Shown: positions 26,517 through 30,580, counted from the first letter of the stretch. The stretch: 56,793 nt of DNA from Bacilli bacterium (GCA_029100965.1 JAQXQC010000055.1:1-56793); one strand, 5' to 3'. The notes: a model not told the origin generated them from the sequence alone. Numbers and translations are program-made.

Positions 26517-27503
26517 ATGGTAAAAAAAATTTATAATTTATTATTTAAAAGAAAAAATTATAAATTTATTATTGGAATATTTCTAGGAATATTTTTTTCT
26601 ATAGTAGGAGTATATGCTGCTAGTAAATATACTTCTAAGAGTGTATATTATAATAATGAAAATAGTAGTTTATCTAGTGATGATGTACAGGGAGCTATTG
26701 ATGAGTTATCAGAGAAAGCAAAGAATCTTTCTAGTAGTGGATGTCCATCTGGTTATGCTTGTTTAGAGAAAAAAACTACTTTAGCGTTAGGAGATTATGT
26801 TAAGATGACACCAACTAAATCTTCTTATACAACAGATAAATCTAAAACAGGATATACAAGTACACAAACCATTAAACCTCAAGAATTAAATTTATGGCGA
26901 GTGATTAAAATTAATAGTGATGGAACAGTAGAGATGATTAGTGAACATGTATCTAGTACAGCAATATACTTTGGAGGAAAAACAGGGTACTTAAATTTAG
27001 TAGGCTATTTAAATGTACTTGCTAGTCAGTATGAAAATAGTACTTACACAAAAGGTTCTAGACATTTTGGTTATAATGGACAAACAGAATATATTACTGA
27101 TACAACAAAATTTGTTAATCCTGCACCATGGACTAGTTCAACTGGAAGTAGTACAGTAGAAAGGCAAGGAGGAGGAGATACTTTATATACTACAGACTAT
27201 AATTTAGTTTATACAGTGTTAGGAACTAGAGTGGCGACCAAACCAGGAAGCGCCGCTGGTTCATATTATTGGATGGCCTCACGTTACTATGGCTATTCGT
27301 CATCTACTAGCTATTACTGGCGCGGTCGTAGCGTGAGCACCTCGGGGTCGAATAGCAACTACAGCTTGTATCGCTATTACAGTTCAAGTTTCAACGCGGA
27401 CTACAATAGTAATTCCTTTCGCCCAATAGTGGTTCTGAAGTCAGGCCTCAAATACTATGGAGTCGGGACAGAGGATTATCCAATGGAAATATCAGTAAGT
27501 TAG
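26517..27503 (+). CDS. DGR variable protein 1: N-terminally anchored or secreted protein with a C-terminal variable region (probable C-type-lectin-like fold)
   Basis: An N-terminal hydrophobic anchor (FIIGIFLGIFFSIVGVYAA). The C-terminal 47 codons (VR1) align with the TR and differ from it at adenines. It is a paralogue of the 29571 and 36649 genes. Confidence 0.85.
   Translation: MVKKIYNLLFKRKNYKFIIGIFLGIFFSIVGVYAASKYTSKSVYYNNENSSLSSDDVQGAIDELSEKAKNLSSSGCPSGYACLEKKTTLALGDYVKMTPTKSSYTTDKSKTGYTSTQTIKPQELNLWRVIKINSDGTVEMISEHVSSTAIYFGGKTGYLNLVGYLNVLASQYENSTYTKGSRHFGYNGQTEYITDTTKFVNPAPWTSSTGSSTVERQGGGDTLYTTDYNLVYTVLGTRVATKPGSAAGSYYWMASRYYGYSSSTSYYWRGRSVSTSGSNSNYSLYRYYSSSFNADYNSNSFRPIVVLKSGLKYYGVGTEDYPMEISVS
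27285..27425 (+). repeat. DGR variable repeat VR1
   Basis: A 141-nt ungapped match to TR 28352-28492. I count 20 mismatches, 17 of them at TR adenines, and all 15 mismatches from codon 6 onward are at adenines. Confidence 0.9.
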
Positions 27504-27514
27504 GAAGTGTAGAA

Positions 27515-27547
27515 CCTCGGAGGACAGCCTAAGGGTGTTCACCGAGG
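27515..27547 (+). other. Conserved GC-rich hairpin just after the target-1 stop codon (copy 1 of 2)
   Basis: The fold is cctcgg-a-ggaca-g-cc-taa-gg-g-tgttc-a-ccgagg. A near-identical copy follows target 2. Confidence 0.6.
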
Positions 27548-27575
27548 CAGGTTTAAAAAGAAAGAAGGTTAAAAT

Positions 27576-27998
27576 GTGGCAGTCATTCATATGGTGAATA
27601 ATTTGAAAGAATTATTTCCTGATTATGTTTTATTATTAAAAATTGGTACTTTTTATGAGTGTTATTGTGATGATGCTAATATTGTTTCTTATTTATTTTC
27701 TTACAAAAGAAAAACTCTATCTAGTGGGGATAAGGTATGTGGATTTCCTCTTGTTTCTTATCATAAGGTAATCTCTAATTTAGAGAATAGAAATATTAAT
27801 TATATTTCTATTGATAAAACACATAATTATGAAGAAATAGATAAGGTTAATTATAAGAAAAAGAATCAATATCATGTGATTTTGGATAAAGCAAATTATT
27901 ATATCAATAATTTAGAGAGAATTGATAAGATTAAAAATTTTCTTTTAAAAGATAATTCTAAAATAGATGAGATAGAGAGATTGTTATATGAAAGATAA
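27576..27998 (+). CDS. Standalone MutS-domain-I-like protein (DGR accessory ORF, MSL-type)
   Basis: LKELFPDYVLLLKIGTFYECYCDDANIVS...CGFPLVSYHKVISNLENRNINYISID parallels the E. coli MutS N-terminus ([21 protein letters not shown]...AGIPYHAVENYLAKLV). This includes the F-x-E mismatch-contact motif (FYE, nt 27651-27659). The start is GTG with an AAGAAGG RBS. Confidence 0.7.
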   Translation: MAVIHMVNNLKELFPDYVLLLKIGTFYECYCDDANIVSYLFSYKRKTLSSGDKVCGFPLVSYHKVISNLENRNINYISIDKTHNYEEIDKVNYKKKNQYHVILDKANYYINNLERIDKIKNFLLKDNSKIDEIERLLYER

Positions 27999-28332
27999 AT
28001 TTTATGTTACTCGTTTAATTAAAGAATTAATTCATAGTTTTCATCAATATTTAACCAATTTTCCTCATAAGGAAATTGAGATAAAAAGAGAGATTATGTC
28101 TACTTCTTATCAAATGTTAAAAATTGCTTATGAAGCAAATACAACTTTTGATTTGAAAAAAAGAGTAGATATTCAAGATAAGATAATTTCTTATATTAAA
28201 TATTTGGATTATTTGGTTAATGTTTGCTATGATAAGCAAATTATTAATTCAAAGAGATATTTGAAATTTGGTGAGAATTTAGATTATTTATTAAAATATG
28301 TAATTGGATGGCGAAAGTCATCTAGGGCTTAG
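27988..28332 (+). CDS. avd: DGR accessory variability determinant (Avd, four-helix-bundle protein)
   Basis: A 114-aa, helical, basic protein located immediately upstream of the TR. The FP-HKE..IKREI...YEAN...KR....I...I..L..L pattern is typical of the Avd / 23S-IVS four-helix-bundle family. Confidence 0.75.
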   Translation: MKDKFYVTRLIKELIHSFHQYLTNFPHKEIEIKREIMSTSYQMLKIAYEANTTFDLKKRVDIQDKIISYIKYLDYLVNVCYDKQIINSKRYLKFGENLDYLLKYVIGWRKSSRA

Positions 28333-28351: not shown

Positions 28352-28492
28352 AATTATGACCATTCTTCATCTACTAACTATAACTGGAACGGTCGTAACG
28401 TGAACACCTCGGGGACGAATAGCAACAACAACTTGTATAACTATAACAGTTCAAGTTTCAACACGAACAACAATAGTAATTCCTTTCGCCCA
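28352..28492 (+). repeat. DGR template repeat (TR)
   Basis: A non-coding segment between avd and the RT. Read in the VR frame it gives NYDHSSSTNYNWNGRNVNTSGTNSNNNLYNYNSSSFNTNNNSNSFRP, with 17 AAY codons out of 47. It matches VR1, VR2 and VR3. Confidence 0.9.
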
Positions 28493-28627
28493 GTAACTTC
28501 TTCAAACTGTGGTAATATAAGTATTCTTATATTAGAGATAATGAAGAAATAGACTAAGTCCAATAGATTTATTCTATAAACAATAATTTAAAATATATCT
28601 GTTAGTAATTTAGGTGAAAGGGGATAT

Positions 28628-29574
28628 ATGAAAAGGAAAAATAATTTATATTCAAATGTATATAAATTTGATCATATAGAGAAGTGTTTTGATGAGATTT
28701 GTAGAAATACAAAGAATAAAAATAAAGTAAGTCAATTTAAAGAATTTAAGGCAATATATATTAGCCGAGTTTATCATGAATTAAAAAATAAAACTTATCA
28801 AGTAGGAAGTTTTCATGTATTTTATCTTTATGATCTAAAAAGAGAAGGATAGTTAGTCAAAATATGTATGATAAGTTAGTGAATCATTTGGTTAGTAGGT
28901 ATATTTTATATGATGCTTTAATTCCTTGTTTGATTGATTCTAATTGTGCATCAAGACCAAATAAGGGAGTAAGTTATGCTTTAAAGTTATATTATCAATA
29001 TCGAAGAGTATTGGATAAAAAATATTCTTATTATTATATTTTAAAATGTGATATTAAGTCTTATTTTGCTAGTATTGATATTGAAATATTAAAGAATAAA
29101 TTAAGAAAAAAGATTAAAGATAAAGATGCTTTAACTATTATTTATCAGATATTAGATAGTGATACTACTCTTAGTATAGGATTTATGACTAGTCAAATAT
29201 TAGGAATATTTTATTTAAATGATTTAGATCATTATATAAAAGAAGAATTAAAAATAAAATATTATGTTAGATATCAAGATGATTTTTTATTATTACATTG
29301 GGATAAACAATATTTAAAATATTGTTTAGATAAGATAAAAGAGTTTTTAAAAAGAGGGAAATTAGAATTGAATGAGAAGACTAGAATTTATAAAAATACA
29401 AATAATATTATTTTTCTTGGGAGAAATAAATATAATAGAAGTTCTAAATATAGAAAACAATTTAGAAAATTAAAACATAAGAAGTATTTATATGATGTAG
29501 GAAAAATTCAATTAAACAGTTATTTAGCTAGTTATATTAATTATAGAAATATTAATGGAGGTTTGAGAAAATGA
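28628..29574 (+). CDS. DGR-type reverse transcriptase, interrupted by a -1 frameshift at an A5 run (28837-28841)
   Basis: RT motifs are present: KCDIKSYFASID, the IGFMTSQ DGR-specific (I/L/V)GxxxSQ signature, YVRYQDDFLLL (YxDD), and FLG. ORFs 28628-28852 and 28864-29574 join as ...FYLYDLK/KRRIVSQNMYDK if one A is added. Confidence 0.85.
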
Positions 29575-30521
29575 AAAAAAGTAAGGGTTATAATTATAAA
29601 TTATTAATGGGAGTGATTTTAGGAATACTTTTATCTGTGGTTGGTGTAAGGGCTGTTAGTTATCTTGGAAGTGGTTCAGAATTAGTTTACGATAATAGTA
29701 GTAGTGGACTTTCCTCTGTTAATGTTCAAAATGCTTTAGATGAAGTTTATAGTAAAATTTGTCCTGATAACTATGTATGTTTCAAGAAGAAAAGTACTTT
29801 AGCATTAGGAGATTATGTTCAGATGACACCAACTAAATCTTCTTATACAACAGATACTTCTAAAACAGGATATACAAGTACGCAAACTATTAATCCTCAA
29901 GAATTAAATCTATGGAGGGTGATTAAAATTAATGATGATGGAACGGTAGAGATGATTAGTGAGCATGTCTCTAGTACAGCGGTATATTTTCAAGGACAAA
30001 CAGGATATCAAAATTTAGTAGGCTATTTAAATGTTCTTGCTAGTCAGTATGAGAATAGTACTTATACGAAAGGTTCTAGATATTTTGGTTATAATGGACA
30101 AACAGAATATATTACGGATACATCAAAATTTGTTAATCCTGCACCATGGACTAGTTCAACCGGAAGTAGTACAGTAGAAAGTCAAGGAGGAGGAGATACT
30201 TTATATGCAACAGATTATAATTTAGTTAATACAGTGTTAGCGACTAAAGTGGCAACTAAACCTAACAGTGCATCTGGTTCAGATTATTGGATGGCTTCTC
30301 GTGACTATTATTATTCTTCATCTACTAGCTATGGCTGGTACGGTCGTAGTGTGGACGCCTCGGGGGCGAATAACATCATCTATTTGTATCGCTATAGCAG
30401 TTCAAGTTTCAGCACGGACAACGATAGTAATTCCCTTCGCCCAATAGTGGTTCTGAAGTCAGGACTCAAATACTATGGAGTTGGGACAGAAGACTATCCA
30501 ATGGAAATATCAGTAAGTTAG
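29571..30521 (+). CDS. DGR variable protein 2 (paralogue of target 1)
   Basis: Its ATG overlaps the RT stop codon (ATGA). It has an N-terminal anchor, a scaffold that by eye is about 90% nt-identical to target 1, and a C-terminal VR2. Confidence 0.85.
   Translation: MKKSKGYNYKLLMGVILGILLSVVGVRAVSYLGSGSELVYDNSSSGLSSVNVQNALDEVYSKICPDNYVCFKKKSTLALGDYVQMTPTKSSYTTDTSKTGYTSTQTINPQELNLWRVIKINDDGTVEMISEHVSSTAVYFQGQTGYQNLVGYLNVLASQYENSTYTKGSRYFGYNGQTEYITDTSKFVNPAPWTSSTGSSTVESQGGGDTLYATDYNLVNTVLATKVATKPNSASGSDYWMASRDYYYSSSTSYGWYGRSVDASGANNIIYLYRYSSSSFSTDNDSNSLRPIVVLKSGLKYYGVGTEDYPMEISVS
30303..30443 (+). repeat. DGR variable repeat VR2
   Basis: A 141-nt ungapped match to the TR. I count 26 mismatches, 18 of them at TR adenines. 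Confidence 0.85.
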
Positions 30522-30531
30522 GAAGTGGAGA

Positions 30532-30580
30532 ACCTCGGAGGACAGCCTAAGGGTGATCACCCGAGGTGGCTATCTTTTTT
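30532..30580 (+). terminator. Conserved GC-rich hairpin (copy 2) plus T-run: probable terminator of the DGR operon
   Basis: acctcgg...ccgaggt stem followed by ggctatctttttt. Confidence 0.6.

Follow-up and report, generated by a model that had tools for sequence, protein, structure and literature searches.

A chromosomal MSL-avd-TR-RT-type diversity-generating retroelement of an uncultured gut Bacilli, once active and probably dead in the genome analysed

The DNA analysed here is a stretch of 56,793 nucleotides (nt) from a Bacilli bacterium, referred to below as the window. An initial annotation had proposed that positions 26517 to 30580 hold a diversity-generating retroelement (DGR), in which two target genes flank a MutS-like gene, avd, a template repeat (TR) and a reverse transcriptase (RT). 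Listing of open reading frames (ORFs) and repeat finding recovered this layout, with every named part in its place on the + strand. The 141-nt repeat occurs three times within the span, at 27288-27428, 28355-28495 and 30306-30446; the second copy is the non-coding TR and the others are variable repeats (VRs). Both described gene overlaps are present, namely 11 nt between the MutS-like gene (MSL) and avd, and the RT stop and target 2 start sharing ATGA. The two flanking targets with TR-derived copies stand as described, but the count does not: a search with the repeat's 3' end gave a first match to a fourth copy at 37947-37962, which extended to VR3 in a third target gene (36649-38037) that had been missed and that starts 7.1 kb past the RT stop. 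Similarly, the copies said to be C-terminal are there but end 75 nt before the stop codons, and so do not form the extreme C-terminus. The whole is very likely a chromosomal DGR of the MSL-avd-TR-RT type from an uncultured gut Bacilli, once active and probably dead in the window genome. The features are as follows (aa, amino acids; pI, isoelectric point; MAG, metagenome-assembled genome).

26517..27503, + strand: target gene 1, an ORF of 328 aa (NCBI hypothetical protein PUD25_04580, Bacilli bacterium MAG), with a predicted N-terminal membrane/signal helix, a two-Cys linker and a C-terminal domain of ~240 aa that contains VR1
27288..27428, + strand: VR1, 141 nt, the most recently rewritten VR
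27515..27547, + strand: conserved GC-rich hairpin 3' of the target 1 stop, a candidate terminator, RNA stability or target-site element
27576..27998, + strand: MSL, 140 aa, a stand-alone MutS mismatch-binding domain I that keeps Phe-X-Glu (GTFYEC)
27988..28332, + strand: avd, 114 aa, pI 9.5, overlapping MSL by 11 nt
28355..28495, + strand: TR, non-coding, 141 nt, with 50 adenines and 16 AAY codons in the VR frame
28496..28627, + strand: TR-RT spacer, a structured RNA by single-sequence fold, RT-14-like layout and family covariation
28498-28548, + strand: spacer hairpin 1, from the single-sequence fold
28549-28577, + strand: spacer hairpin 2, from the single-sequence fold
28591-28629, + strand: spacer 3' stem-loop (UGUUAGUA...GAAAGGG), conserved, abutting the RT start codon
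28628..29574, + strand: DGR RT, in two ORFs (28628-28852 and 28864-29574), 315 aa when repaired
29571..30521, + strand: target gene 2, 316 aa (PUD25_04605), its start overlapping the RT stop
30306..30446, + strand: VR2, the 141-nt copy in target 2
30532..30567, + strand: GC-rich hairpin 3' of the target 2 stop, followed by a T-run, terminator-like
36649..38037, + strand: target gene 3, 462 aa, non-adjacent, with the same C-terminal domain and a different N-terminal region
37822..37962, + strand: VR3, in target 3 and beyond the span first reported

Mismatches between TR and each VR were scored over the full 141 nt against the 50 TR adenines by Fisher test (positions within the repeat are given in TR coordinates). 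In VR1, 16 of the 19 mismatches fall at TR adenines (p=4e-6), and in the VR1 core (28367-28492) all 15 of 15 do so (p=5e-8); the counts are 17/25 for VR2 (p=3e-4) and 19/28 for VR3 (p=1e-4). Enrichment at TR adenines, which the initial annotation had set as one test of its reading, is thus present in all three VRs (p 3e-4 to 5e-8). Read in the VR frame, TR has AAC at 13 codons and AAT at 3, and codon positions 1 and 2 together hold 46 of its 50 adenines; its 30 mutable codons allow ~10^27 possible peptides, and the number of codons that an adenine substitution would turn into a stop is zero. The AAY codons, the placement of adenines and the avoidance of stops are design hallmarks of a DGR template. 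The TR/VR homology ends in a GC-rich TTCGCCCA block and then diverges, position 28493 being G in TR and A in the VRs.

The RT carries the two motifs named in support of a DGR-type enzyme, IGFMTSQ and YQDD, both of which are invariant across the RT relatives aligned. A profile of the RT family searched against PDB sequences found 8ub7_A as its best match (E=1.7e-25, 93 bits), a sequence 100% identical to brt of Bordetella phage BPP-1. The next PDB match has E=4e-11, group II intron and retron RTs lie at ~1e-7, and 8ub7_A leads any other RT by 47 bits. The sequence accordingly places the RT in the DGR RT subclass, closest to Brt, this placement being by profile search against PDB sequences. A literature search on 8UB7 found nothing. 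The YQDD box (window 29273-29284) is found throughout the RT clade, and its Gln is invariant in eight aligned sequences; the Bordetella prototype has YMDD.

The two accessory genes were also borne out. By profile match, the MutS-like ORF is a MutS_I domain (Pfam, E=3e-9, 37.4 bits against a cutoff of 20.6); it aligns to residues 22-85 of Taq MutS, where GTFYEC corresponds to the Phe-X-Glu mismatch motif, and the wedge Phe is invariant in 108 family members. The protein of 114 aa upstream of TR matches the whole Pfam bAvd profile (E=2e-6, 28.5 bits against a cutoff of 40) and, over its full length, NCBIfam DivGenRetAVD (E=9e-7, 29 bits against 80). Although the window copy is below both cutoffs, 40 of 41 members of its family match bAvd and no other Pfam family, the best at 6e-13, and the identification as Avd-like stands. 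Comparison of the avd family with BPP-1 bbp7 by hhalign and with PDB by profile search gave no match. MSL and avd were present in 80 of 80 fetched loci related by RT (below, related loci in general are numbered with an L, and proteins with a P). Many of the related DGRs (L008-L085, e.g., L012, L014, L016 and L023) have a pair of MSL paralogues, of which the first precedes avd and the other immediately precedes RT; in the RT-adjacent class the Glu of Phe-X-Glu is replaced by Ile or Leu. The RT-adjacent MSL is sometimes fused N-terminally to the RT, as in P0074 and P0081 (447-448 aa).

The spacer between TR and RT holds a candidate RNA element. A motif 3' of TR, AAAAUAG-AUAA-arm-UUGUUAGUAg...cGAAAGGGAg-arm'-UUUAG.ACUAUUUU, recurs in colinear and divergent layouts. 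Covariation of the spacer stem-loop was assessed in a 52-sequence alignment with slid 3'-partner controls and 500 shuffles: 96.5% of cells are paired compared to 42-66% in the slid controls, both sides have changed in 102 cells compared to at most 27, and 0 of 500 shuffles matched the observed values. The structure of the 3' stem-loop in the family is supported by this covariation. In the window, the stem-loop at 28591-28629 keeps the inner helices without the outer one. The Rfam model RT-14 (RF02921), a structured RNA motif associated with RT genes, aligns end to end with window 28497-28629 at 32.4 bits and with the equivalent place of the L007 spacer at 28.8 bits, both below its gathering cutoff of 48.1; model and spacer share a three-hairpin layout in the window and L007. 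Compensatory changes in hairpin 1 (28498-28548) are found in L007 only, in a hairpin alignment that disregards the L010 row. At the gathering threshold, Rfam gave no match in ten more distant relatives and nothing for L003-type spacers, and a literature search on RT-14 found nothing. By analogy with the Bordetella system, RT-Avd would bind the spacer RNA and prime from it.

Other hairpins follow the targets. GC-rich hairpins amid an AT-rich genome start 12-15 nt past the stops of targets 1 and 2 and are absent after target 3 (sequence CCTCGG-A-GGACA-GCC-TAA-GGG-TGTTC-A-CCGAGG), and a T-run follows the target 2 copy only. The post-stop hairpin is kept in L003, L086 and L087, with a compensatory CCTTGG/CCAAGG pair in L086_T2, and that of L003_T1 has another sequence in the same shape.

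The RT clade contains 2,260 proteins at E<=1e-3 and, in GTDB, 188 species representatives, all of them gut or rumen MAGs labelled Bacilli, Clostridia or Clostridium sp. The commonest order in the 80 loci is target-MSL-avd-TR-RT, as in the window, and a divergent layout, in which another MSL stands immediately upstream of RT, is found in many relatives. The chromosomal setting claimed for the cassette was upheld, as housekeeping synteny around it is kept in several relatives and a viral contig collection searched with the RT held no relatives. When every ORF of the window was searched with profiles of the cassette families, the only members were a single RT, a single MSL, a single avd and the three targets. 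The position of target 3 is conserved in L003 and L087.

Past activity can be read from the comparison of strains. Ten target 1 orthologues are nearly identical outside VR, whereas at codons with a TR adenine at position 1 or 2 the entropy is 1.56 bits, compared to 0.16 at other VR codons (p=9e-6) and 0.19 over the remaining protein (p=1e-16); this diversification was seen between strains. Furthermore, positions 28360/28361/28484 are T/T/C in the TRs of L003 and L094, in window VR2 and in all VRs of L086 and L087, and VR3 shares the ancestral base at 28361 and 28484. The window TR carries the other base and, as the TRs of L003 and L094 and the VRs share the alternative state, its bases are the derived ones. 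VR2 keeps the ancestral TR bases at 28360, 28361, 28399 and 28484. VR1 alone has the derived state at 28360 and, with a change of Leu to Phe, at 28484, and was therefore rewritten after TR had mutated. In L094, TR is one codon short (138 nt); VR2 there has the same length without gaps and differs from its own TR at 32 sites, 24 of them adenines, while VR1 keeps 141 nt. On sequence comparison, the 28360/28484 bases and the L094 codon loss are natural TR-to-VR marker transfers and show past activity. Collectively, the component tests (RT, Avd, MSL, TR/VR mismatches and chromosomal setting) were all positive and support the identity of the element as a DGR.

Two VR comparisons are noted separately. 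VR2 and VR3 have one difference over 28362-28423, with 10 shared substitutions relative to TR, some of them non-adenine, and 13 differences over 28424-28480, 12 at TR-adenine sites; this mosaic would fit 3'-anchored partial retrohoming following gene conversion, although a shared non-adenine change at 28432 fits poorly with that account. In L003, VR1 (8658-8798) and VR2 (11682-11822) are identical over 141 nt though the targets have otherwise diverged, which could be gene conversion or a collapse in metagenome assembly.

The RT frameshift seen in the initial annotation is present, and comparison with L002, which has an intact RT and 97.5% nt identity, shows that a single C has dropped out between 28835 and 28836, in the Pro codon CCT. 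L002 reads GATCCTAAAAAG where the window reads GATCTAAAAAG (by codon, GAT CCT AAA AAG AGA versus GAT C-T AAA AAG AGA), and the lost codon sits in the invariant YDPKKRRIVSQ of RT motif 1. A slip from A6 to A5 was considered as the lesion and rejected, because the same DNA comparison shows the lost C. Repair of one base gives an RT of 315 aa, 97% identical to the intact 315-aa relative P0001, and the reading frame is intact in L002, L003 and L094. Over the lesion site, the window is matched at 100% identity by the Logan assembly of run SRR21376897. All 120 of the 120 RT homologues listed are single ORFs of about 310-320 aa, and the break is therefore not a programmed frameshift. No other record of the exact target 2 protein was found.

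Other lesions affect syntenic close relatives, whose flanks are 94-97% identical. L003, which represents another species (RT 82% identical), has the complete cassette, with three targets and a housekeeping context that correspond to those of the window. L094 keeps an intact RT (315 aa); it has lost 104 nt that lay between two direct repeats of 9 nt (AGAGAGATT), and with them the end of MSL and ~35 codons at the start of avd. In six loci (L086, L087 and L090-L093) the equivalent of window 27636-29546 is missing, i.e., most of MSL, avd, TR, the spacer and nearly all of RT (~1.9 kb); what is left of MSL (its first ~60 nt) and of RT (its last 27 nt) lies around ~110-120 nt of AT-rich filler, with one common junction. 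No fewer than 24 contigs, drawn from many samples, encode the exact target 1 protein P0135, VR included; all four of the loci that were examined are core-less, and VR1 is identical across loci up to 1.2% diverged elsewhere and is therefore regarded as frozen. The three core-less haplotype groups share one deletion and yet differ at 32-33 of 141 VR1 positions, with 25 of 32 differences between L086 and L087 at TR-adenine sites; these differences could stem from another DGR that acts in trans, or the deletion allele could have spread by recombination. Thus, of the claim that this DGR diversifies the cell's own surface proteins, the DGR, its targets and its past activity stand, but with a Pro codon of RT motif 1 short of one C, and with other lesions in sister strains, the element is now probably dead in the window genome.

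Several observations weigh against this interpretation. VR2 and VR3 each carry 8-9 non-adenine mismatches and the intact L003 has 8 of 28; TR drift accounts for several of these, not all. A Bordetella-type hairpin adjacent to the initiation of mutagenic homing (IMH) site was looked for beside the VRs and not found, the nearest conserved GC-rich hairpin lying ~87 nt beyond the VR end and past the stop codon. As to the proposed role of MSL in shielding from mismatch repair, set out below, the Glu of Phe-X-Glu varies across the 108 MSL proteins, the window clade being in the minority that keep it. The frameshift allele is confined to one run (SRR21376897), maybe the MAG's own source, so that a read-level error is conceivable, and the RT differs from that of L002 at 12 synonymous and 9 non-synonymous codons, a pattern with no relaxed selection, by which the lesion is either very recent or not real.

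That the DGR is still functional, the missing C being a sequencing or assembly error or being bypassed by -1 slippage on GAU CUA AAA AGA with Leu for Pro, is rather unlikely. The RT otherwise shows no signs of decay, nor is any other part broken; at every non-adenine core position VR1 agrees with the current TR, and would hence have been written recently; and a -1 shift at A AAA A would, as read from the sequence, restore the frame. However, two different assemblies agree on the sequence, and the lesion lies in a CC dinucleotide, not a long homopolymer, which makes an Illumina-type indel error unlikely. The single-ORF homologues argue against a programmed signal, the slip site is not a canonical X XXY YYZ heptamer, and the independent lesions of sister strains indicate that the element is being lost in the lineage. 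Another reading, in which a second DGR of the same family, acting in trans from elsewhere in the genome, had at least a part in writing VR2, VR3 and the core-less VRs, is improbable. The VR1 differences among core-less loci with one junction would suit it, as would related MAGs with two RT loci of the clade (L016 with L058, L027 with L063), paralogous target genes at unrelated loci, and the prototype, in which avd, TR and brt work in trans from a plasmid. Against it, profile searches of all ORFs found no second RT, TR, avd or MSL in the 56.8-kb window, the ancestral states of the window TR in VR2 and VR3 are explained by older writing from the cassette itself, and recombinational spread of the deletion allele also explains the core-less pattern. 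The idea that the locus is not a DGR, with paralogous segments and a pseudogene fragment lying beside an unrelated RT of group II intron, retron, Abi or DRT type, has next to no probability. The only above-noise NCBIfam matches of the RT are to group II intron, Drt3a and retron models, all sub-threshold, and non-adenine mismatches exist; but the adenine bias and AAY codon design, the 47-bit lead of BPP-1 Brt, the Avd and MSL beside every related RT fetched, the confinement of inter-strain variation to TR-adenine codons and the passage of non-adenine and indel markers from TR to VR have effectively refuted it. A once-active chromosomal DGR, probably dead in the window genome, remains the preferred reading.

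The target proteins matched no Pfam or NCBIfam family, Pfam being searched up to E of 10. Neither the 66 members of the target family against Pfam nor the target profile against PDB sequences gave a match. In a profile search of 1.84 billion representatives, the C-terminal domain of ~240 aa was found in 3,145 clusters at 50% identity (E<=1e-3), on many different N-termini. An AlphaFold model of target 1 from a diverse alignment has a predicted local distance difference test (pLDDT) score of 91.5 overall and ~98 over residues 90-320; a first model, from a shallow alignment, had a pLDDT of 44 and was discarded. The model predicts an N-terminal helix (15-37) and a mixed alpha/beta domain. VR corresponds to residues 258-304 and follows predicted strands whose residues are by turns variable and invariant (Tyr, Trp, Leu and Phe), and therefore one exposed face of a sheet probably varies.

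Foldseek found no match to the target model in PDB at E<=1e-3 (best E=1.9, template modelling score <=0.12) and a best E of 0.11 in the viral BFVD, and hhalign of target against Mtd gave a probability of 0.3%. The predicted fold matches none in Pfam, PDB or BFVD; its class is possibly new, though a very divergent C-type lectin would be compatible. Annotated VR regions have systematically been C-type lectin folds (Roux et al. 2021). It is tentatively proposed, from the model, that here the hypervariable residues may sit on a beta-rich, non-C-type-lectin domain of ~240 aa that belongs to a large unannotated family of surface proteins. Homologues of 560-570 aa in L088 (7018-9707; P0122-P0128) are tandem doubles of the target domain; their neighbours are a paralogue of 317 aa with a single domain and a protein that has Flg_new repeats and is at least 2,459 aa long; this locus is unrelated, lies near HisRS and ArgRS, and has no RT nearby.

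Around the cassette, a 377-aa ORF directly upstream of target 3 (window 35506-36639) has no family match and a C-terminal hydrophobic segment; it is kept at 377 aa in L086 and L087, and L003 has a 224-aa gene there. The N-terminus of target 3 has a faint camelysin/TasA-type match (Peptidase_M73, E=0.025). In L086, an AbiEii/DUF6088 toxin-antitoxin-like insertion (17629-19648) separates a DUF308 gene from the 377-aa gene and a DDE transposase lies ~9 kb upstream of target 1, both absent in the window. A promoter scan of the window gave promoter-like sites no more often than chance. The conserved flank includes a Spore_GerQ-family gene (window 23794-24171; L086 7010-7384), which suggests that the uncultured host may be a spore former or the descendant of one.

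In the intact system, TR and its structured 3' spacer would be transcribed, as in the Bordetella prototype. The RT-Avd complex would bind this RNA and copy TR to cDNA with misincorporation opposite template adenines, and the cDNA would take the place of the homologous VR in three paralogous genes for surface proteins, in each case near the 3' end; two of these genes flank the core and the third lies ~7 kb downstream. Each retrohoming event could re-randomise up to 30 codons without ever creating a stop. MSL (140 aa, pI 8.3) most likely binds the mismatch-dense cDNA/VR heteroduplex and would shield it from host mismatch repair. This role is supported by work in Bacteroides, in which knockout of host mutS raised retrohoming 5- to 10-fold (bioRxiv 10.1101/2024.11.15.621889), and by the dominant-negative MutL included in a DGR reconstitution in E. 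coli to suppress mismatch repair.

The cassette is of an already published kind, since its MSL-avd-TR-RT layout is that of Architecture D. In a survey of 372 DGRs, an MSL gene was found in 16, always with avd and never with HRDC, and this combination defines Architecture D; three surveyed RTs have MutS_I-like C-terminal extensions, 13% of DGRs have two targets in the cassette and 45/372 have non-adjacent targets (Wu et al. 2018, PMC5758913). The Bacteroides Bfr, Bth and Bun DGRs also encode Msl (bioRxiv 10.1101/2024.11.15.621889). Judged by its genes, the window cassette belongs to this architecture, with a MutS_I gene and avd, and no HRDC match in any cassette ORF. It is like the Architecture D systems, including those of Legionella pneumophila and Bacteroides, in its small MutS-domain-I protein with avd, TR and RT; the length and pI of its MSL fall inside the published 112-283 aa and pI 7.2 +/- 1.7, and the pI of its avd product equals the mean for published Avd (9.5 +/- 0.7). 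It differs in its host, an uncultured gut Bacilli, in targets without a recognisable C-type lectin domain, and in the frameshifted RT; many of its relatives have a second MSL next to the RT or an N-terminal MSL-RT fusion, whereas the survey has only C-terminal extensions.

Compared to BPP-1 (mtd-avd-TR-brt), the cassette has an RT whose closest solved relative is Brt, and shares the IGxxxSQ motif, the order avd-TR-RT, a basic Avd, adenine-specific TR-to-VR transfer, a VR near the 3' end of the target and a TR of about 134-141 nt. BPP-1 is, however, phage-borne with one target and no MSL, whereas the window element is chromosomal with three targets; Mtd folds as a C-type lectin, and hhalign relates the window targets to Mtd only at the negligible probability given above, the Avd family could not be aligned to bbp7 by hhalign, and the VRs lack the Bordetella-type hairpin. 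The DGR of Treponema denticola and other multi-target cellular DGRs likewise have one TR and several paralogous chromosomal surface-protein genes, some non-adjacent. The Treponema type is an HRDC-containing Architecture C with TvpA of the FGE-type C-type lectin fold (PMC5758913), whereas the window cassette has MSL and avd as its accessory genes and targets whose fold found no match. The likeness to RT-14 extends to a full-length match on the TR-RT spacer, three hairpins and the UGUUAGUA...GAA loop in the window and L007, but at scores under the cutoff, and the stem-loop of the window clade is without the outer helix that is present in more distant relatives.

As a DGR, the element adds little: tens of thousands have been catalogued, and MSL and multiple and non-adjacent targets have already been described. 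The related gut strains, however, hold one chromosomal DGR in four states, namely intact, with an RT frameshift, with an avd deletion and with the whole core deleted. Together with the TR-to-VR marker transfers, this decay series offers a ready way to study when targeted hypermutation is retained by cells or given up, and what becomes of frozen variable proteins. The large RT clade, with one or two MutS-domain-I proteins, some of them RT-fused, and an invariant wedge Phe, provides material for tests of mismatch-repair evasion. The least ordinary result is the VR-bearing domain: it is modelled with high confidence, and no family in Pfam, no structure in PDB and no profile of Mtd matches it. If confirmed, this domain without a structural relative would be a further natural scaffold for DGR-driven sequence variation, against a C-type-lectin-only view of VRs, and would widen the set of scaffolds on which hypervariation may occur.

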